A stretch of DNA of 27,045 nt from Paraspadella gotoi. Lineage: Eukaryota; Animalia; Chaetognatha. The notes below the pieces were generated by a model, which was not told the origin of the DNA, did not search any database, and saw only the letters and a program-made list of their open reading frames with translations. Position numbers and translations under genes: made by a program. The DNA lies in assembly GCA_051294375.1 (NCBI GenBank), contig CM119264.1, forward strand, positions 29,343,436-29,370,480, written 5' to 3'. Shown here piece after piece: positions 13,241 to 27,045 of this stretch (positions are counted from its first letter, which is position 1; the number at the start of each line of letters is the position of its first letter).

Positions 13241-13522
13241 AACACAAAAACAATGTATCAGATTGTATTATAGAGATTATAAATGGGCTTAAATATTTTC
13301 ATTATGTGATAATCCTTTCTTTTCGTTGTTTTTAATTTTTGAGAAAGCAAAGTATTTTTTATCCGTCACCCCTGTCACAAAAGTGGCAAGAACGGACAAC
13401 CGCCCGCCTCGCCAGCAGGCGAGAAGAGGGCAGCCGGCAGGCGTATCAGGCCAAAGAGACATAAGAGTGGCCCTGGGGATCTTTCCGCAATGATAGATTC
13501 CCATCAATTCACCAGTTCGGTC
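13241..13522 (+). repeat. Inverted copy of 15236-15512 (PLE fragment plus flank), ending at a 10-N gap
   Basis: CAATGTATCAGATTGTATTATAGAGATT...ACCAGTTCGGTC is the reverse complement of 15236-15512 apart from single-base indels. Confidence 0.75.
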
Positions 13523-13849
13523 NNNNNNNNNNCCGACACACCTACTTATTATGAATTATGGAGCCCCACAAAAAATAATAAAAACTATTTATCAAGATTT
13601 TTAATTCATGATCAATATTATTCCACATCGTGAAATAAAATTTTTTCATTTAAGATTTGTAATTAATAATCATCAGTTTGTAGATTGCCTATGATGAACT
13701 TACCTTGTTAAGCAGAGGCTGACGGTTTGAGAGACAAAGTGAGCAAAACTTTATATCTAGCTCAATCACATACTTTTCTACCCATACACAAAATTTTATT
13801 CCAATCCATCTATTTAATTACAAATAATTAGAGTTTAATGCTAATATAG

Positions 13850-14293
13850 GATTGACTTAAAGTTGATTGAATTATGTAAGTTGATTAAATTATAAAAGTT
13901 TACCAAAGATAAAAGTTTACCAAATGATGAAAGTTTACCAATTTATAAAGTTCACCTAATTATAAAAGTTAAGAAAATTATGAAGGTTAACCAAATTAAG
14001 TAAATTGACTAAATTATAAAAAAATTTGTTGTCAAAACAAATAAAAATTGTTTTTCTCCTAATGCCCCAACAACGAAAATCGATAGTCTATACATAATGT
14101 CTATCAAAAAAATTACCAAACTTTGCTAGTTGACCAAATTGTTTAAAGTTAACCAAATTATCAAAGTTTACCAAATTATAAAAGTTTACCAAATTCTAAA
14201 AGTTGACTAATTATATTAGTTGACCAAATTATTTCAGGTGACCAAATGTGTCATTTGACTAAATTATGTAAGTTGACCAAATTATGCAAGTTG
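13850..14293. repeat. Degenerate 18-bp minisatellite of the same family as 25697-26095
   Basis: Units such as AGTTGACCAAATTATGCA and AGTTTACCAAATTATAAA. Adjacent 13746-13832 is a reverse-complement match to about 25305-25402. Confidence 0.75.
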
Positions 14294-14586
14294 GTATTGG
14301 TACAGCTATTGGTCCATTGATTGATTAATAGAAGTGAAAAATATTAATTTTTATATTTTATTATAATGAAAGATGAAAAAAAATAGATAGAGAGAAGAGA
14401 GAGAGAGAAAAGAGGGAGAGAAAGAGAGAGAAGGAGAAGAAGGAAGAGAGAGATAGGAGGGAGAGAGAGCCGTTCCAGGGGGCAAGAAAATCCATCCCCC
14501 TGGGGGGTGGCCCCGGGGGGAAATGTTTTTCTAGCCCCAGGGGGATTCCCCCTGGAGTGGCNNNNNNNNNNNNNNNNNNNNNNNNN

Positions 14587-14710
14587 GTTTTTTTAAATTA
14601 TTACAACGATTTTTTTTTTTATTAAGAGACGGACATGTTTCGGCTTGTTGGCTTCAAGCCTTCATCAGCATTTGACATTCATTAAAAATTTTGTGTAAAG
14701 GAAGAGTGTA

Positions 14711-14766
<56 letters not shown>

Positions 14767-15445
14767 GAGAGGAAAAGAGAGAGAGGGGTAAAAGTTTTCC
14801 AACAAAGTGGTGAGACAGAATAGGGTCAGATGTAAAGGTTAGGGCAGATTGAGTGAGTTGTGAAAAAGAAGAGAGAACTTGTTAGAGAGAGGAAAGAAAG
14901 AGAGAGAGAGAGAGAAAACAACAGGGATAAATAAATAATAAGATACATTTTTGCAATGTTACAACAGCAGATAAAGTTTTGAAAAAAAACTAATATTGGT
15001 GAAATTTGATATACAAATAGTGAAAAATAAACAATTAGCTAAGGATAGTTAGGTGAAATTTGAAATGTGAAAGAAAGTAGCTTTTTATAATTTTAGGTGA
15101 TAATTAAGAGACTAAGGAAAGTAAAATTAAAAGAAAGGAGAGCTCAAAATAAGCTGGCCCCCCTTGTTTTCATGCAATGAAGGAAAGGACGATGAATGAC
15201 AGGTCATTGGCGTGTCAGTGCTGAGAGGAGAGTACGACCGAACTGGTGAATTGGATGAATCTATCATTGCGGAAAGATCCCAGGGCCACTCTTATGTCTC
15301 TTTGGCCTGATACGCCTGCCGGTTGCCCTCTTCTCGCCTGCTGCGCGAGGCGGGCGGTTGTCCGTTCTTGCCACTTTTGTGGACAGGGTGACGGATAAAA
15401 AAAATACTTTTGCTTTCTGCAAATTACCAACGAAAAGAAGGATTA
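14587..15445 (-). mobile_element. Truncated Penelope-like element (related subfamily) in an intron of the Tha p 2-like gene
   Basis: Same order as the 23-kb element: GC-rich ORF-end remnant, (CT)n tracts, shared AAAGTTT(T)CCAACAAAG, hammerhead, AATAAA. It is cut by a 25-N gap. Confidence 0.7.
14629..14671 (-). ncRNA. Minimal type I hammerhead ribozyme (PLE-type, divergent subfamily)
   Basis: Minus strand ATG-CTGATGA-A-GGCTTG(aagccaa)CAAGCC-GAAA-CATG-TC-CGT. The core is the same as in the 23-24 kb copies, and stems I and II differ in sequence but still pair. It is followed by AATAAA...ATCGTTGTAA as in those copies. Confidence 0.85.
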
Positions 15446-15682
15446 TCACATAATGAAAAATCTTAAGCCATTATTAATCTCTATAATACAATCTGATACA
15501 TTGTTTTGTGTTTAAAATACTTTGCTTTCTCAAAAATATATTCATTTAAATATAAAAAAACGAATAATCATTGTGCGAGATCGATCAATCGATCGATCGA
15601 TAAATAAATAAATAATTAAATAAATTAATTAATTAATTAATTAATCATTAATTCAATCAATCATCTCTGCAATCTATTACAG

Positions 15683-15890
15683 ATACACGGAAAGGACAAA
15701 GCTCCGGATACAAAGACGATGGAAGGCCTTGCCCATCTGGCTCTTCCAAAGTCTTTGGTCGGGGCGCCGTCAGTCTTGAAGGATCTTCGCATGAAACTGG
15801 AGGACGAGAAGAGTTCGATGCCTTGGCTGAATGTGATTAATGTGGAGAAGAAGGAGATGAAAAAGAAGAGGGTGAAGAAAGTCAGAGATT
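15683..15890 (+). CDS. Second coding exon of Tha p 2-like secreted protein (IHGKDKAPD...KKKRVKKVRD)
   Basis: Acceptor CTATTACAG| at 15682 (phase 0); donor T|GTGAGT at 15891 (phase 1). The exon ends in a basic cluster that may be a proprotein-convertase site. Confidence 0.8.
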
Positions 15891-16127
15891 GTGAGTTGTT
15901 TGCGGGGGGGGGATCAGAAAGGACCGATTGTAAACCCCACCCTTTAAATTTTCTTAACTCCTCACCAACCCCGCCAATTTAGGCGGGGGAGGGGGAAGGG
16001 GGGCTGAAGGAAAGAAAAAGATAGAAAATGTTGGGATAAATTGCCAAAAAAATGTAATGGAGGTAAAAATATCAGCCTTATTTTCCAATAGTGCCCCAAT
16101 ACGGCTTAAATTTTTAATAAGTTTGAA

Positions 16128-16373
16128 GTGAAGAGACAGTAATCATTACTGTAATGGTTGTTATGTGTTAGTGACAGAACCATTCAATATAAGCAGTCCC
16201 TGAGCTTCGGATCAGGCTGTAACACCATGTTACAGGCGGGTTAAGCACCCGTCCCTCTTAACTGCTAGGCGGCTACCGGGCTAGAACCCCGGACCTTTGG
16301 GTTGGGAGGCGAATGACTTGCCTCCGGCACCAATGGCCGCTGAAGAACGGTTGGTGGATTTTAGTCCACCGTA
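16128..16373. mobile_element. Second, inverted copy of the 2045-2331 element, in an intron
   Basis: GTGAAGAGACAGT...AAGCAGTCCCTGAGCTTCGGATCAGG...GGTGGATTTTAGTCCACC is a close reverse complement of about 2093-2330. Confidence 0.7.
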
Positions 16374-16546
16374 GAAGTTTATTTTGGGGTTTAAGGATAG
16401 GGGATAGGTTAGGGGTTAGGGATTAGGGGTTAGGGATTAGGGATTTTATTTGAGATTTGGTTAGGAACTATGGTTAGAGAAGAAACAAATGATGAAAAAG
16501 AAAAACAAAAAAAGAAACAAATGATTGAAATTCTTTTTCCTCTCAG

Positions 16547-16672
16547 TGGAAGCGTACCGTGCCTATCGATCCAAAGACGATGAGCCCAAGATCAACGTTT
16601 GGCCTAATCATTGCTACTCCGGTTGGGCTAAGCACCAGTGCCGTCTCGGCTGGCGATTTGGATGTCAGGAAG
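16547..16672 (+). CDS. Third coding exon of Tha p 2-like secreted protein (LEAYRAYR...NHCYSGWAKHQCRLGWRFGCQEG)
   Basis: Acceptor TTTTTCCTCTCAG| at 16546 and donor AAG|GTGAGA at 16673. Phases 1/1 fit the neighbouring exons and there are no stops. Confidence 0.85.
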
Positions 16673-16773
16673 GTGAGAATCGTTTGTGAAATGAACAAAG
16701 TGACCAATTCTTTCGTGATTGTGACTCTGTAAGCAAATAATTTAAGTGAAAATCCTCACTACTTCACAATCAG

Positions 16774-16898
16774 GTCTTTGCTGGACCCAATGTCATTGGG
16801 CTTGGATCACGAAAGGCGCCGCCGAATGGTGTTGGGCTGGAAAACCCAACGACACCGACGGAGACAAGAAACATAGCAAGGCTTACGTGTTTTGCAAG
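16774..16898 (+). CDS. Fourth coding exon of Tha p 2-like secreted protein (LCWTQCHWAWITKGAAEWCWAGKPND...AYVFCK)
   Basis: Acceptor AATCAG| at 16773 and donor AAG|GTGAGG at 16899. It carries the CW.QC...EWC[WY]...YV.C motif. Confidence 0.85.
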
Positions 16899-17040
16899 GT
16901 GAGGGGAGATCCAAACTCACTAAAGCGAATAGTAGATCATGAACAAACTTGTACGTGTGAACATTTTTAAATTAAAAAAAAAATTATTTTTATTTTTCAA
17001 TTTTTGCATACACTCATATTTATACATAGTACTCGGTACT

Positions 17041-18194
17041 CACCATAGAAAATGTCAAAATTTTAAAAGATTTTTTCTTATTTTTAAAAGCAGATTCGAA
17101 TTCCTAATGAAAAGTTGATAGAAGGAATTATAATTCTTTTTAGAAAATTATTTGATTAAGAGGAAAGGTCATTCAGCATAACAATACGTAATCATTGATG
17201 TGGTTAGGGCTAATATATCGAGAAATACATTATAGTCATCAGTATTCACAAAAAAATAAGTTCTTATTTATTTGTGTTCATTCTGTTTTCAATAATTTTT
17301 TTTTTTTAAATCGGTAAATAACAAATTGTTAAGTTTAAATGGTAAAGCACATTTTTTTAAAGTATTTGTTTTTCAATCTGGTTGTTAAAAAAATTCTAGG
17401 TAAGAAGTTAAAACACGGATGGGATAGTTTAGAAGGGGAGAAATTAAACAATTAATCCTCGTTAACTCTGTTGGTTTTCTAGTCATGACAAAATCTTCAG
17501 TTAAATAGATGGTAAAGAAATTCGAGGGCTACAATAATCTACACTGAATTTTGAAGAAGTTGCAGCCTAAACGACTGCAATAATATTGAATTAAAAATTT
17601 GATTAGCAATCTTAAAACATTTGTAAAAATGTAATAGAGAGACATTTTGATAAACGCGTTCCAGTTAGAAAGAATTCAGGGTTAAAGTTTAAAAAACGTT
17701 TCATTTTCAAGGATACAAGTTGAAATTTAAAAATGTCTCTCTATTACATTTTTCTAATTCAGTAATAAAAGAATTCATAAAAATATCAGATGGATTGGCC
17801 TTTTCGTCTGACCTGCAACTCTTCAGATAGGTTTCTTTTATTTTATATTATAATTAAAACCGATATTAAAATGGGGTAGAATGCATCAAATGCTTAAAGT
17901 GAATACATTTTCGGAATCGCCAAGGAGCTCAGCTTTCTGAATTTGTAACTCCATTTTAGCCTATTTTGAAGTTGAATTGAATGACCCTTTTTCTTAAGTG
18001 GATCAAAATCCTAAAAAAATATTATTATTAACCTATAATTAAATTTTAAGTATAAAAAATATAGTTTTTTTAATTTTTGGCTAACTTAATGTAAGAATTT
18101 TTGGTTAAGACTTCTATAAACTTTTACAAGGAATTCGAATTTGCTTTCAAAACCTAGAAAACATTATTTAAAAATTTTAACATTTTCTATGGTA
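17041..18194. mobile_element. Old non-autonomous DNA transposon (MITE-like) with degenerate long TIRs, in the last intron
   Basis: ACCATAGAAAATGTCAAAATTTT..AGCAGATTCGAATTCCT..AAAAGTT (17042-17116) is inverted against AACTTTT..AGGAATTCGAATTTGCT..AAAATTTTAACATTTTCTATGGT (18119-18193). Also AAGAGGAAAGGTCATTCA vs TGAATGACCCTTTTTCTT. Confidence 0.55.
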
Positions 18195-18391
18195 AAATTT
18201 TTTTTTATATATCAATGTTCTTTAGTCCAGGACTGTTCATGATTAACTATTCGAATTTTGATCTGCAACTTCACTACGCCTTATTGAAGCTTCATCTCTG
18301 CTTCCTCCTCTCCCGCCATTCTCCCATCTCTCGTCTCGTCTTCGTGCTCGTCATCTTGACTAATGAATTACAACGTGCACTTTTTCTCCAG

Positions 18392-18457
18392 ACCGACGAC
18401 GATTGCCTGGATGTGCGCGCCTATCGCCTCGATTGCAAATCTATGTGCACGCTGTGA
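18392..18457 (+). CDS. Last coding exon of Tha p 2-like secreted protein (TDDDCLDVRAYRLDCKSMCTL*)
   Basis: Acceptor TTTTTCTCCAG| at 18391 (phase 0). It completes the C...D.DC.....C...C ending, with TGA at 18455-18457 and AATAAA at about 18602. Total CDS is 1101 nt (366 aa plus stop). Confidence 0.85.
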   Translation, partial: TDDDCLDVRAYRLDCKSMCTL

Positions 18458-20450: not shown

Positions 20451-21559
20451 CTAAAGATCGAATGAGATGATGTAGTTCGGATGGTGACGATATCTTCTTT
20501 CGACGCATCCCCCAACGCAGACGAGATGAGTCGCGCGTTTCTCTTTCGTCACGACGATCGCTCGATGATGAGACAACCCTTCATCGTCGCCGCAGAATTC
20601 GGAAGGAAGATTCTGAATTTTTTGGAAACTCGAGTCTTTGACGTTAAAAACGAAGATTTCTTTGGAGTGACCGGAAGGAGTTCCGCCGCCGACGAGAAGG
20701 AGTTGAGAGGCGGAGACGGGGGAGAGGGTGTGAAAGCCAATGGCGGCGGGAAGACCGAACCTCAACGACGACCAACTGTGACTTTTCATGTTCAAAACGT
20801 GAAAATCGTCTAAAGGATTATCCTCACAACTGCCTCCGTGAATGTAAACTTTTTCTTTCAGTCGAGCGACAGCAAAGTATGAGCGAGGTGAAGGCGATCG
20901 ACCATTTGTCGGAAAATGAGAGAAACAATTAATCTCCGGATCAAATTCAATTAACTGATTGTTATAAAACATTCCTGGCTTTGACGTTTTTTCAACCCAA
21001 TCTCCGCCTTCTCCCTTTGGGCCGAGTCCTCCCAGGAAATAAAGTTTTCCCTCGAAACTCCAGCCCTGGTGGCCGAATCTGGCTGAAGGGACTTCGCCTA
21101 TGGGAATGAGGCGCTTGAATTCGCCAGAGGGAGAGAGAGAGAAGATTTCGTTGGTTGGCTCGTAAAAGCCTCTGTCGCCGCCAAATAAGTAAATCAGTTT
21201 TTCTATAACAGCGAAAGCGGCATATATTATCCCTGATGGAATGTCGCCAGTTTCTTGAATTCGTTGCCAGCGAAGATCGTGAGAATCGACTTCGGCGACA
21301 AAGACGACGTTTTTGGGAAGAAATAAATGTTTGCCCGAATTATGTTGAACTCCACCCCAGAATAAGATTTTCCCATCGACTTCGGCGGCGACGAATCCAA
21401 CGCCGATAAAGAATCTCTTTGCTGTCGACCAATCATCGTATCGGAGGCGATCGAGGGAAGGAGACTTAAGGATTGGCGGAGCGAATATGAGTGAAGAGTG
21501 AAGAGGAAGTTCGAGGCTTTCTTGGAAGATTGGCTCATCCGTGTTGACGTCCGGCGGGG
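20451..21559 (-). CDS. Exon 2 of HEPN-coiled coil-Kelch protein: six Kelch repeats (KLHDC/HCF-like beta-propeller)
   Basis: The acceptor TTTTTTAACAG| at 21560 is phase-compatible with exon 1. The frame is open for 1109 nt to the stop at 20451 and includes the listed ORF 20451..20972. Six hydrophobic-GG Kelch motifs: ILFWGG, IYLFGG, LYFLGG, VYIHGG, LLLVGG, LVCVGG, with linkers TGDIPSG, GEVPSARFGH, GRSPSPRSYF. Total CDS is 1938 nt (645 aa plus stop). Confidence 0.9.
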
Positions 21560-21699
21560 CTGTTAAAAAAAGGAACTTTTATTAAATTTAAGATTTTAAA
21601 AATGAGTAAATAAAATTTAAAAGAAAAGAAAATATGTAAGGTAAACAAATTCTATCAACAAAAGTTTAAAGGAAAAATAGAAGAAATAAAGAAAAAAAT

Positions 21700-21700
21700 A

Positions 21701-21796
<96 letters not shown>

Positions 21797-21802
21797 GAAA
21801 GA
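21700..21802. repeat. (AAAG)n microsatellite in the intron of the HEPN-Kelch gene
   Basis: Directly visible. Confidence 0.9.
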
Positions 21803-21924
21803 AGTAAATTTTAAAAAAAGGAAAAAAATACGAATGAAAAAATTATTAAAAGAAAAAAAGAGAAAAAATGGCTAAATAGATATCAAGCAAGGAAAAATTG
21901 TTAATATAGCTTCAGTAAATATAC

Positions 21925-22753
21925 CTGAAATGGCAGGCTGCCCTCTGGATGCCGGCGGATGAGGTTGTAAAGGCAAAAGCGACTGTTCAGGCGCCTGATT
22001 CAAAGTTCCATCTGAAAGTGGAGGCAAAGGCGCTTCATCCTCCAAGCCTTGGATGATCTTGTCGGTTTGCAACTGACTTCTTTCCAACATCTTTCTCAGT
22101 TCCCTCGCATCCATCTGAGCCTTGGCAACTTTCTCCTTCAGGCTGGAATATCTTCTTTCCACTTCCTCCAATCGACCCGCGTCCAACTGACCCATTCTGA
22201 CTCGTTCCAAATGATTGAGCCATTGCATCTTCAGTCCCGGAAAATCTTGGAACATTTTCTCCACGACGTTTTTCTTGAGAAACTCGAATCGTTCGTAACA
22301 TTCGATGTCGTCTATCCCGGTTCCGTCGTCGTGAGCGATGTCGTTGCGCTTGCTTCTCAAATGATTGCTGGCGTCTCTCACGTGACGTCGCGTGACTTTC
22401 TTGTCGACGACGTGAGCGAAAAATGTCACGTCTCCTTTTTCAAGAATCGGAATGAATTTCTCGCTTATGACGTCCGATTTTTTCTTTTGTCCTTTGAAGA
22501 ACCGATAGTTGGTGATAGCTTCTTCGTAATTTTCGTCGCACCAAGACTTCCAGAGTTGACCGTCGTCCCAATCTCTGTTCGTCTCTTCCGGCAGAAGCGC
22601 GCCGAATAAAGATTTGTACATCGCGGGTCCGTCGATCAAAATGGCGCCGGTGTAGCGAAGATGGTTCACGCGTGGGGGCGTGTAGGGATTGCAGGTGGCT
22701 GCGGTGGCTGCGGCTGCGGCGCCGGCCGCTGCCCCGGAGGCTGCGGCTGCCAT
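21925..22753 (-). CDS. Exon 1 of HEPN-coiled coil-Kelch protein (poly-Ala N-terminus, DZIP3-type HEPN-like domain about aa 28-191, coiled coil about aa 194-238, Pro-rich linker)
   Basis: 829-nt open frame from ATG 22753 (MAAAASG...) ending at donor TTTCAG|GTAT (phase 1). It contains N30-HLRY..LIDG, G-D108-VTFF, L-R-S-K-R136-N-D-I-A-H141 (R-x4-H; nt 22348-22331), GIDDIECYERF and LERVRMGQLD, matching my recollection of the DZIP3-like HEPN pattern. A heptad-like stretch RLEEVERRYSSLKEKVAKAQMDARELRKMLE follows. Confidence 0.85.
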
Positions 22754-22957: not shown

Positions 22958-23154
22958 CAGAGAGACAGAGAAAGGGAACCGGCACGTTATTACTATATAG
23001 GAAAAAAGTATATCACATTTTGAATAAAGGATATCTATTCGAAAATTTTGTTAGATTTATAAAAAAAATCCATGGTATATCCTTTCTTTTCGTTGTTGTA
23101 TAGAGATTTACAAGGAAATTTGAATTGTTACAACGATTTTATTATTAATAAGTT

Positions 23155-23198
23155 GCAGACATGTTTCGACTCAGAGATTTTCGAGTCTTCATCAGCGC
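23155..23198 (-). ncRNA. Minimal type I hammerhead ribozyme (PLE-type)
   Basis: Exact reverse complement of 24244-24287. Confidence 0.85.
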
Positions 23199-23241
23199 TT
23201 TTGACAGTTGTGAATAATGGGACAATTTGTGAGTTAAAGAA

Positions 23242-23284
<43 letters not shown>

Positions 23285-23995
23285 CAGAAGAGGTTAAAGT
23301 TTCCAACAAAGAATTGAGAGAGATTAGTGGTCAGTTCAGAGGACAGATTTAGTTTAGGCTAGATAGAATAAGTGGTGAAAAGAAATGAAATTTGGTGAAG
23401 GTGAGAGAGAGAGAGAGAGAGAGAGAGATAAATAAGTAATTACATTTGAGCAATGTACAACAAAGATAAATTAAACAAACTTGATTTGTGTCTAATAACA
23501 AAATTGCAATAAATTAATTTTGAAGTTTGAAAAATTGAAATGAATGAATTTGAAATATAAGAGTTTAATTCAGAGGGATAGATAAGTAAAGATTTTAGTG
23601 AAATATAAGATGTATGAAAGGCTCAAAATGAGCAAGCCCCCCCAGGTCTTATGAATGAAAGGCATGGCTGATGGTGCCGGGTCATTGGCCGCGTCATAGG
23701 CTGAGAGGACAGTGGGGTTGATCTCAAGTTTGCTGGCTCGGGCAGCGATCCCTGAGGAAAGAGACCCAGAGCTACCCTAATGTCCTCTGGCCTGATATGC
23801 CTGCCGACGGCCCTCTTCTCACCTGACGGTGAGGCGGGCGAGTATCCACTCTTGCCACTTTTGCAAGGGACGGTGGAACATTCATTTCAATTTTTCAAAC
23901 TTCAAAATTAATTTATTGCAATTTTGTTATTAGACACAAATCAAGTTTGTTTAATTTATCTTTGTTGTACATTGCTCAAATGTAATTACTTATTT

Positions 23996-24040
<45 letters not shown>

Positions 24041-24155
24041 TTCACCAAATTTCATTTCTTTTCACCACTTATTCTATCTAGCCTAAACTAAATCTGTCCT
24101 CTGAACTGACCACTAATCTCTCTCAATTCTTTGTTGGAAACTTTAACCTCTTCTG

Positions 24156-24200
<45 letters not shown>

Positions 24201-24243
24201 TTCTTTAACTCACAAATTGTCCCATTATTCACAACTGTCAAAA

Positions 24244-24287
24244 GCGCTGATGAAGACTCGAAAATCTCTGAGTCGAAACATGTCTGC
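24244..24287 (+). ncRNA. Minimal type I hammerhead ribozyme (PLE-type)
   Basis: GCG-CTGATGA-A-GACTC(gaaaatctct)GAGTC-GAAA-CATG-TC-TGC: conserved core, 5-bp stem II, palindromic ACATGT replacing stem III, 3-bp stem I. Predicted cleavage after GTC at 24284. Confidence 0.85.
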
Positions 24288-24472
24288 AACTTATTAATAA
24301 TAAAATCGTTGTAACAATTCAAATTTCCTTGTAAATAAAAAAAATCATAATGTTTCCAAATCTATATTGAATTTCCTTTCAGTTGCTTCTTTCCATTTTT
24401 TTGTAGGTCAAATCGTTTAGACGTTACAGGCAAAAAATATTGTTACTTCAAATGAAAAATGTCTAAAAAAAG

Positions 24473-25062
24473 GTGGCTGTGGTATTCCTCCCATACGGGA
24501 TTCCTCCCAACTGGATTCCTCCCACACGGGATTCCTCCCAGGTGGGATTCCTCCCACACGGGATTCCTCCCCGCGGGATTCCTCCCACACGGAATTCCTC
24601 CCCAAGGAATTCCTCCCATACGGGATTCCTCCCATGGAATTCCTCCGCATAGAATTCCTCCCACACGGGATTCTTCCCATACAGGATTCCTCCCAAAGGA
24701 ATTCCTCCAATGCTGGATTCCTCCCACACATTATTCCTCCCACGCAGGATTCCTCCCACACGGGATTCCTCCCACACGGGATTCCTCCCACGCGGGATTC
24801 CTCCCACACGGTATTCCTCCCATGCGGGATTCCTCCCAGACGGGATTCCTCCCATACGGGATTTCTCCCACACGGGATTCTTCCCACGCGGGATTCCTCC
24901 CACGCGGGATTCCTCCCACACGGGATTCCTCCCACACTGATTTCCTCCCACACGGGATTCCTCCCACGCGGGATTCCTCCCACGCGGGATTCCTCCCACA
25001 CTGATTTCCTCCCACACGGGATTCCTCCCACACGCGATTCCTCCCACACAGGATTCCTCCCC
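24473..25062. repeat. 16-bp minisatellite (GGATTCCTCCCACACG)n, left arm of a foldback-like structure
   Basis: Directly visible. The 16-aa periodic ORFs (WEESRVGGIPCGRNPV) in every frame reflect the 16-nt period. Confidence 0.9.
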
Positions 25063-25140
25063 TTAAATTGTGATTAACTTTCTTGTTGCATGTTCTTGTT
25101 GCAAGGAAAAAAATTGATTCATTAAAATAAAATTTTTTAC

Positions 25141-25650
25141 TCAGATCTGCTTATCAGCAGATTCCGACTCTATAATTCACTTTGTCACCCCAAAATATTG
25201 TCGGTAAATCATTATTATCATATCAAAAGCTCAAATTATGATAAATTATGCCAAAAAAATGATGTCTGTCCGTCCGTCCATCCGTCCGTCTGTCCGTCCC
25301 CCTTTAGCAAAAAACTCCAATTACTCATGATTGGATGGATGGATTGGTATCAAATTTTGTGTGTGGGTAGGAAACTGTGTGATTGAGATGGATATAAAGT
25401 TTCGATGGAATAGTGCGAGTGGAAATGAGTTAAAATGGAAAAAACAAAAGTCATATTTACTTGAAGTATTTTTACTTAAATTTACTCATAATTATTATGT
25501 TTATTAAAATTTGAATAGATAAATTGAAATGGAATTTTGTGCGTGGGTAGGAAAGTATGTGATAAAGCTGGATATAAAATTTTTGATGTAATCGTAGGAG
25601 TGGAAAAGAGTTCAAATTAGAAAACCAAAAGATACATTTATTTGAATTTT
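25141..25650. mobile_element. Possible DINE-1/HINE-like non-autonomous Helentron-associated element
   Basis: Hairpin ATCTGCT-TATC-AGCAGAT (about 25145-25162), a (GTCC/GTCT)n microsatellite at 25264-25300 and two tandem units of about 180 bp (from about 25353 and 25533). This is architectural resemblance only. Confidence 0.35.
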
Positions 25651-25696
25651 TTAAAGATTCTCTCTCTCTATCTCTCTCTGATTAATTGATTGATTG

Positions 25697-26095
25697 ATTG
25701 ACCAAATTATGCCAATTGACAAAAATATGCCAGTTGACCAAATTCTGCAAGTTGACCAAATTATGCCAGTTGACCAAATTATGCCTGTTGACCAAATTAT
25801 GCGAGTTGACCAAATTATGCCAGTTGACCAAATTATGCCAGTTGACCAAATTATGCCGGTTGTCCAAATTATGTTAATTGGCGAAATTATGTCAGTTGAC
25901 AAAATTAGGTCAGTTGAACAAATTATGTCAGTTAAGCAAATTATGTCAGTTAAACAAATTAAGTCAGTTGTCCAAATTATGTCAGTTGACCAAATTATGT
26001 CAGTTGACCAAATTATGTCAGTTGACCAAATTTTGTCAGTTGACCAAATTATGCCAGCTGACAAAATTAAGTCAGATGACCAAATTATGCCAGTT
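25697..26095. repeat. 18-bp minisatellite (GTTGACCAAATTATGCCA)n
   Basis: Directly visible; gives the VDQIMP and IIWSTD hexapeptide ORFs. Confidence 0.9.
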
Positions 26096-26589
26096 GGGAG
26101 GAATCCTGTGTGGGAGGAATTCCGTGTGGGAGGAATCCCGTGTGGGAGGAATCCCGCGTGGGAGGAATCCCGCGTGGGAGGAACCCCGTGAGGGAGGAAT
26201 CCCGTGTGGGAGGAATCCCGTGAGGGAGGAATCCCGTGTGGGAGGAATCCCGTGTGGGAGGAATCCCGCGTGGGAGGAATCCCGTGTGGGAGGAATCCTG
26301 CATGGGAGGAATCCCGTGTGGGAGGAATCCCGCGTGGGAGGAATTCCAGGCGGAGGAATTCTGTGGGGAGGAACCCCGTGTGGGAGGAATCCCGCGGGGG
26401 AGGAATTCCTTTGGGAGGAATCCCGTGTGGGAGGAATTCCTTTGGGAGGAATCCCGTGTAGGAGCAATTCCATTTGGAGGAATCTTTTGGGGAGGAATCC
26501 CGTTTTGGAGGAAACCCGTGTGGGAGGAATCCCGCGTGGGAAGAATCCTGCGTGGAAGGAATCCTGTTGGGAGGAATCCCAATGGAACC
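26096..26589. repeat. 16-bp minisatellite (GGGAGGAATCCCGTGT)n, inverted relative to 24473-25062
   Basis: The unit is the reverse complement of the left array's unit. Confidence 0.9.
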
Positions 26590-26835
26590 ATACTTTTTTC
26601 CTAGATAGTTGTTAGAGTTAGAGTTTGTAAGCGAGTACTCGCGAGGGAACTAAAAACCTTATCAAGGAGCAGAGTTCAAGGCCGACTTTATTCTGACGCA
26701 AAATTAAAAAAACTCAAAAATTTCAAATTGAGCCTTGAGGAGATTTTTCTCTGTGTGGAATTTGGAATCTGGGTGCGTTCCGTCTCGTCGGCTTTATTTT
26801 CTAAGATCTCCCCATTTCATCTTAATTTATAAAGT

Positions 26836-27045
26836 AGGTTAAAAGGTTATGGTTAGGGATTGGGTAAAGGATTATGGTTAGGGATTAGGTTATTGATTAG
26901 GTTAGGGATTAAGGTTAGGGATTGAGGTTAGGGATTAGGGTTAGGGATTAGGGTCAAGGATTGAGGTTAGGGATTAAGGTTAGGGATTAAGTGAGGGATT
27001 AAGGTTAGGGAGTAGGGTTAGGGATTAAGGTTAGGGATTAAGGTT
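26836..27045 (+). repeat. Degenerate telomere-like repeat (GGTTAGGGATTA[A])n running off the window end; similar short tract at 16386-16476
   Basis: Alternating TTAGGG and TTAAGG/TTGAGG units; not a pure (TTAGGG)n array. Confidence 0.8.

Follow-up and report, generated by a model that had tools for sequence, protein, structure and literature searches.

A HEPN-type domain joined to a KLHDC-derived Kelch propeller in a predicted receptor-enzyme of Paraspadella gotoi

A two-exon gene on the minus strand of a 27,045 nucleotide stretch of Paraspadella gotoi DNA (the window) encodes a protein of 645 amino acids that is predicted to be an intracellular defence receptor-enzyme, in which a HEPN ribonuclease-type domain is followed by a likely coiled coil, a flexible linker and a Kelch propeller. 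This HEPN-Kelch combination is architecturally new but belongs to a known theme, that of invertebrate HEPN effectors mounted on variable sensors.

The window is eukaryotic DNA, rich in repeats and bearing spliceosomal introns, and contains no match to Rfam. The original prediction had joined 22753-21925 to 21559-20451 in a single frame, and this join is borne out by 645 codons plus a stop codon, with no internal stops, and by a GT-AG intron with a T-rich tract ahead of its acceptor (Table 1). No other GT/AG pair at a distance of up to 30 nt from the called splice sites keeps the frame. The ATG at 22753 opens the exon 1 frame in a good start context, with no ATG upstream as far as a CT repeat; its position is matched by the starts of relatives in the alignment, and contigs from one sequencing run (X6) extend past it to 22838. 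The linker between stalk and propeller covers aa 240-320 (approximately 80 aa) and is proline-rich, with 21% proline across aa 240-300. Since the HEPN domain and stalk lie on exon 1 and the whole, intronless propeller lies on exon 2, exon shuffling is suggested. We considered an artefactual join of two adjacent genes, and rejected it because the 375-codon frame of exon 2 has no in-frame methionine until deep in the propeller and because the junction is used.

Table 1. Positions in the window of the HEPN-Kelch gene and of its predicted features.
Feature	Window positions	Strand	Basis or content
Exon 1 (coding)	21925..22753	-	aa 1-276: Ala-rich start, HEPN, helical/coiled-coil segment, first part of Pro-rich linker
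Intron	21560..21924	-	365 nt, phase 1, GT-AG; (AAGA)n microsatellite; inside Pro-rich linker
Exon 2	20451..21559	-	Remainder of linker, entire intronless Kelch propeller, stop codon
HEPN-type domain, aa 21-195	22169..22693	-	Pfam, 11 relatives, AF2, Csm6 profile and fold matches
Conserved D108-x-T110	22424..22432	-	Before helix 109-119; invariant in 9/9 rows
Predicted RNase motif R136-N-D-I-A-H141	22331..22348	-	End of helix aa 123-140; invariance in family
Predicted coiled coil, aa 192-239	22037..22180	-	Heptad check; start common to NACHT-bearing P0018 and P0019
Six-bladed Kelch propeller, aa 321-645	20454..21428	-	Pfam PF24681, KLHDC2-like; ends at last strand

Use of the junction was assessed in reads from four of 11 public runs, none of which is recorded as RNA; of the four, X1 and X5 are DNA and X6 is RNA by guess; figures for X6 and X7 were nearly equal, and the two were counted as one dataset. 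The joint 21559/21925 is present in one contig each of X6 and X7, with no differences across 21406-21559, and is not listed for X1 or X5, contigs of which cross the exon-intron boundary with no differences (21406-21606 and 21915-22102), as expected of DNA. The RNA-seq check proposed with the original prediction therefore favours the junction, and we conclude that one dataset, probably of RNA, shows these splice sites in use. The spliced contig falls short of documenting a complete in-frame mRNA for the window copy: in X6 it apparently also skips 21978-22111, approximately 134 nt of the stalk and linker in exon 1, with depth and side length unchanged. This skip is found in X1 and X5 as well. 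If no letters lie between its two sides, it shifts the frame and brings in a stop at codon 240, ahead of the Kelch domain; such a variant, if out of frame, would encode a Kelch-less HEPN protein.

The N-terminal domain is very likely a HEPN domain of the wider DZIP3/CXorf38 group, an assignment that combines several individually weak lines from sequence and model. The Pfam family HEPN_RiboL-PSP matches the window domain at 21.4 bits (E 2.6e-4), below its cut-off of 28.4, and HEPN_DZIP3 (PF18738, cut-off 27 bits) gives no match to it at E up to 1. Eleven relatives of the domain, at 27-36% identity, came out of an exhaustive search. Pfam HEPN families match seven of these, all below cut-off, and HEPN_DZIP3 itself matches six at 13.5-19.9 bits, below cut-off and over model positions 81-125 only. 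The window's own HEPN domain has no usable match in the Atlas; for the relative P0005, Atlas neighbours at 0.93-0.95 (nearest clusters 0.95) carry PF18738 in 11-38% of members and PF15112/DUF4559 in 11-37%. Formal membership of PF18738 was rejected, as the window domain has no match and those of its relatives fall below cut-off. The profile comparison thus pointed, below threshold, to the HEPN clan and not to HEPN_DZIP3, and the earlier label 'DZIP3-type' survives in a looser sense, through the Atlas neighbours of P0005 and through relatives that bear a NACHT domain.

An R-x4-6-H pattern occurs three times in the 645 aa protein and is weak evidence alone, but its conservation in relatives raises the one at R136 above chance. 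R136, N137, A140 and H141 are invariant in all nine full-length rows of an alignment at about 25-30% identity. With D108 and T110 they belong to 11 invariant positions, every one of which is kept in the window copy. The nine rows are the window protein and eight full-length relatives; the fragments P0007, P0008, P0010 and P0011 were excluded, P0018, a longer member of the same cluster, replaced P0009, and P0019 was added. In the alignment termed A1 the motif is present in eight of 12 rows, and the other four end or diverge ahead of it. The intact R136-NDIA-H141 and the preceding D108 sit where they had been placed, and conservation of the arginine and histidine among homologues, a test named in advance, was found in every full-length row.

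An AF2 model of the domain (pLDDT 92) is all-helical, with a helix at 123-140, H141 directly after it and the next helix at 149-167. This location agrees with the account of the HEPN motif in the accessible part of PMC3710099, where Rx4-6H, with a polar residue after the arginine, is placed where a core helix ends. The best PDB match to the A1 family profile is Csm6 (E 0.017), and PADLOC returned a Csm6-like match (E 0.0077). A VIA-align fold search of 48,161 structures ranked Csm6 (4rgp) first (Z 7.4, rmsd 3.9, 116 aligned), Cas13 fourth (Z 6.5) and Swt1 eighth (Z 6.3), the Csm6 score being tied within 1 Z with unrelated helical bundles; a second fold comparison placed Csm6 at ranks 1, 2 and 6. 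Foldseek with the same model gave nothing at E 0.001 or better, and phmmer with the HEPN domain alone gave chance matches only against the PDB. Weak as each is, the HEPN-clan profile matches and the top profile and fold match to Csm6, together with the conserved motif, support the proposed HEPN identity. A dimer prediction scored 0.00, which, having been computed without an alignment, carries no weight either way. A tree of the nine HEPN rows has no resolved branching and places the window copy on a long branch.

The architectures of the relatives bear out the suggested link to NACHT proteins. P0018 (954 aa) and P0019 (1125 aa) carry the same HEPN family ahead of a helical segment and a NACHT domain, and P0003-P0005 are short proteins with low-complexity tails; this distribution points to the HEPN domain as a mobile N-terminal module. 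A Kelch domain is carried by none of the relatives. Neither exon of the window gene has a Pfam match to NACHT or NB-ARC, and in tblastn searches of the window P0018 and P0019 match the HEPN-helix part only. The coiled coil of the original prediction has moderate support, from a heptad check of a charged, helical stretch of 44 aa, in which hydrophobic residues made up at best 0.53 of the a/d positions, and from weak matches to coiled-coil Pfam families; the proline-rich linker that follows it had been missed. The C-terminal tails of P0003, P0004 and P0005 contain stretches rich in N/Q/I/V/G, which we take to resemble RHIM-type amyloid motifs and presumably hint at activation by oligomerisation; no RHIM match to these tails was found in Pfam.

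The six Kelch blades proposed for the C-terminal half are all present, as judged by six GG motifs (aa 345, 403, 453, 518, 567 and 626) and by a match to Pfam PF24681 (Kelch_KLHDC2_KLHL20_DRC7) at E 4.6e-46 and 157 bits, against a cut-off of 50. The best solved relative of the propeller is KLHDC2 (E 8.6e-23), and although the two are distant all six blades are intact. The likeness to the C-degron receptors KLHDC1 and KLHDC2 lies in the six-bladed propeller and a long loop in blade 3; the window protein differs from them in its fused HEPN domain, in its C-terminus and in its pocket. It stops at the final propeller strand, whereas KLHDC2 continues to residue 406, a tail of approximately 45 residues. 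In KLHDC2 the tail after the propeller is the Elongin BC-binding part, which recruits cullin. The residues R236, R241 and S269, given as the carboxylate contacts of KLHDC2 in the available text of PMC11470957, are replaced by S, P and G in a pairwise alignment with full-length KLHDC2. With both the degron-pocket residues and the tail lost, a plain KLHDC2 orthologue was rejected, and we conclude from the alignments that the propeller is KLHDC-derived and not a C-degron E3 receptor.

Many divergent contigs were present in all four runs. X1 contigs identical to the window had mean depths of 59 to 345, a spread that fits several near-identical copies, although depth does not measure copy number and alleles or a pool of individuals could contribute. 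Variation was tallied from 40 of 177 variant rows, unphased, which map to 34 codons; none of the 34 is a stop codon. In this subset the Kelch codons have 21 nonsynonymous to 3 synonymous changes and exon 1 has 5:5 (Fisher P 0.03), a contrast that would weaken without the two of the five synonymous exon 1 changes that lie in the gapped Ala-rich start. The pN/pS of exon 1 is about 0.29, and the nonsynonymous excess over the whole Kelch domain does not differ significantly from neutrality (P 0.15). Top-face loops were assigned from the Kelch motif, after the variant list had been seen, and not from the AF2 single-sequence model (pLDDT 34); they take up 117 of the 324 Kelch residues (36%). Within the same 40 of 177 variants these loops show a ratio of 16:1 (pN/pS 4.7, P 0.075) and the rest of the Kelch domain 5:2, so that 16 of 21 nonsynonymous Kelch changes fall in the loops (clustering P 2e-4). 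Since loops outvary strands in any protein, we regard the top-face excess as a trend and not as proof of positive selection. The expected contrast of variable Kelch loops with a conserved RxxxxH is accordingly seen as a trend.

An in-frame replacement at 22390-22450, seen in X1, X5 and X6/X7, removes a net 42 nt (14 aa) within aa 102-121 and covers D108-x-T110. Among the X6 contigs listed for exon 1, the one with this replacement has the greatest depth; such a copy may encode an altered or inactive HEPN domain (a decoy). A 3-nt insertion behind 21456 also recurs in variant contigs.

HEPN RNases such as Csm6 and RNase L need a dimer for activation, with an active site built from two chains. For the window protein we envisage that a foreign or damage ligand would bind the Kelch face, that the ligand-bound protein would cluster through its stalk so that two HEPN domains meet and complete the active site, and that the predicted nuclease, once switched on, would cleave host or invader RNA. 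The gene itself would have arisen by exon shuffling, in which a HEPN-helix effector exon was joined to a propeller of the KLHDC1/2 type that had no introns and was possibly a retrocopy; the top face of this propeller would be diversifying to recognise different ligands. This reading, a cell-autonomous defence in which Kelch-ligand clustering leads to RNA cutting, is favoured because the same HEPN family heads NACHT proteins, because the KLHDC2 pocket and tail have been lost and because there are many variant copies; it is weakened by HEPN matches that stay below cut-off, by the loss of D108-x-T110 in some copies and by the skip in exon 1. We put its chances at about even. The propeller could instead act as a guard or bait, either holding an active HEPN domain off or being itself what a pathogen effector or protease attacks, with release through the proline-rich linker as the activating step. 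The 80-aa linker between the modules and the possible Kelch-less variant would suit such an arrangement, and a propeller from a family of host quality-control receptors is a plausible pathogen target, but the KLHDC2 pocket residues are gone and the changes crowd into top-face loops, which fits varied ligands better than mimicry of one fixed host protein. We consider it unlikely, though a serious contender.

Much the same standing, unlikely but worth weighing, is given to the view that exon shuffling produced the gene recently, that it belongs to a family evolving by birth and death in which many copies are decaying or inactive decoys, and that the fusion has no coupled function. The copies that have lost D108/T110 and the possibly frameshifting skip, which occur in all three studies (X1, X5 and X6/X7), are in keeping with decay, as are the non-significant selection tests and the fact that protein searches and a metagenome scan found no orthologue. 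Against this, the window copy combines all 11 invariant family positions with an intact 645-aa frame, the variant codons are free of stops, exon 1 has a low pN/pS, the blades have stayed intact despite their distance from KLHDC2 and the junction is used. Least probable of the alternatives, in our estimation, is a housekeeping factor in RNA or protein quality control, in which the KLHDC2-like propeller has kept its recognition of C-terminal degrons or of stalled products and brings in an RNase of the Swt1/Las1 kind. KLHDC2 is indeed the closest solved relative and Swt1 is among the fold matches; however, R236, R241 and S269 are not kept, nothing extends past the propeller, NACHT proteins carry the same HEPN family and a housekeeping gene would not be expected to exist in so many variable copies. 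The ligand-clustered defence receptor-enzyme could also be one member of an NTPase-free, germline-diversified class of intracellular receptors, in which interchangeable effectors (here a HEPN RNase) are set on a coiled coil and a Kelch domain co-opted from a ubiquitin-ligase receptor, with a top face under diversifying selection, so that the whole would work as a killing switch in the manner of RNase L but with many specificities, as a repertoire. This broader proposal is a tentative one, and we would sooner bet against it than for it.

RNase L and Csm6/Csx1 are ligand-activated, and their sensors read a fixed nucleotide messenger. The window protein resembles them in combining a sensor and a HEPN RNase in one chain, Csm6 being also its best profile and fold match; it differs in that its predicted sensor is a variable, repertoire-like propeller face. 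NLR/STAND receptors have a central NACHT or NB-ARC NTPase, which the window protein lacks. HEPN effectors on variable sensors have precedent in invertebrates in the accessible portions of PMC3710099, PMC9646362 and PMC8195603. An N-terminal HEPN domain, an R-N-x-x-x-H motif and lineage-specific variable copies are shared with the DZIP3/hRUL138-like and CXorf38-like HEPN proteins of invertebrates, HEPN-NACHT NLRs included, as far as these are described in the available sections of PMC3710099 and PMC9646362. In the latter, 194 of 202 oyster DZIP3-HEPN proteins are reported to have the motif, over 50 being on NACHT proteins and many without; the DZIP3 fusions listed in the accessible part of PMC3710099 are without Kelch, and the word Kelch is absent from its main text. 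The part of PMC8195603 available to us describes an expansion of Crassostrea gigas HEPN-Ig-DED-TRADD-N-WD40 proteins, also without an NTPase, proposed to be both invader sensor and effector. Both proteins have an N-terminal HEPN domain and a C-terminal beta-propeller and are NTPase-free; by comparison with that C. gigas protein as so described, the window protein is a minimal, three-part version with a Kelch propeller, and is without the Ig, death-fold and TRADD-N adaptor parts. Sponge Kelch genes are down-regulated by microbial patterns in PMC6208332, the accessible text of which makes no link to HEPN.

A HEPN-Kelch fusion was not found in the literature, a provisional result as supplementary tables may list one. 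Nor was a second organism with the fusion found by word-indexed protein searches and a metagenome scan, which are of low sensitivity and in which intron-bearing genes are poorly represented. The HEPN domain gave none among 4250 longer candidates in the word-indexed search; exon 2 gave one unrelated Kelch protein among 2667 and a profile one among 7989, neither of them HEPN-Kelch, and none of 176 pattern matches in the metagenome scan was confirmed as HEPN-Kelch. The idea of an uncharacterised architecture without an NTPase switch accordingly holds, provisionally, for the HEPN-Kelch pairing, of which no report was found in print, and not for the principle, which the available text of PMC8195603 already gives for the oyster HEPN-WD40 proteins.

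Immune expansions in invertebrates are rich in animal HEPN domains of the DZIP3/CXorf38-like kind, and in the accessible parts of the papers cited above the RNase activity of these domains is predicted from the motif. A compact 645-aa protein with one effector, a stalk and a sensor offers an easy handle on both the RNase prediction and the rule of activation. Should sensing prove to lie with the variable Kelch face, a quality-control receptor would have been turned into an immune sensor, and Kelch would join LRR, TPR, WD40 and ankyrin among the repeat folds used for intracellular recognition of non-self.

Several other elements were observed around the gene. An inverted repeat of 458 bp and 96% identity (23106-23546 / 23879-24336) lies 350 bp upstream of the start codon and is likely a fold-back transposon, related pieces of which occur at 13241-15512. 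On the plus strand, 11439-18456 likely holds a neighbouring gene of five exons, which begins with what resembles a signal peptide and is rich in Cys and Trp at its end; the four of its exons that were tested have no Pfam match above cut-off. A large inverted duplication of 83-84% identity pairs 5482-6539 with 8383-9371 and 4883-5341 with 9418-9889. Tandem arrays of 16-nt and 18-nt units lie in 24484-27045, where the window finishes in a degenerate repeat that resembles those of telomeres.
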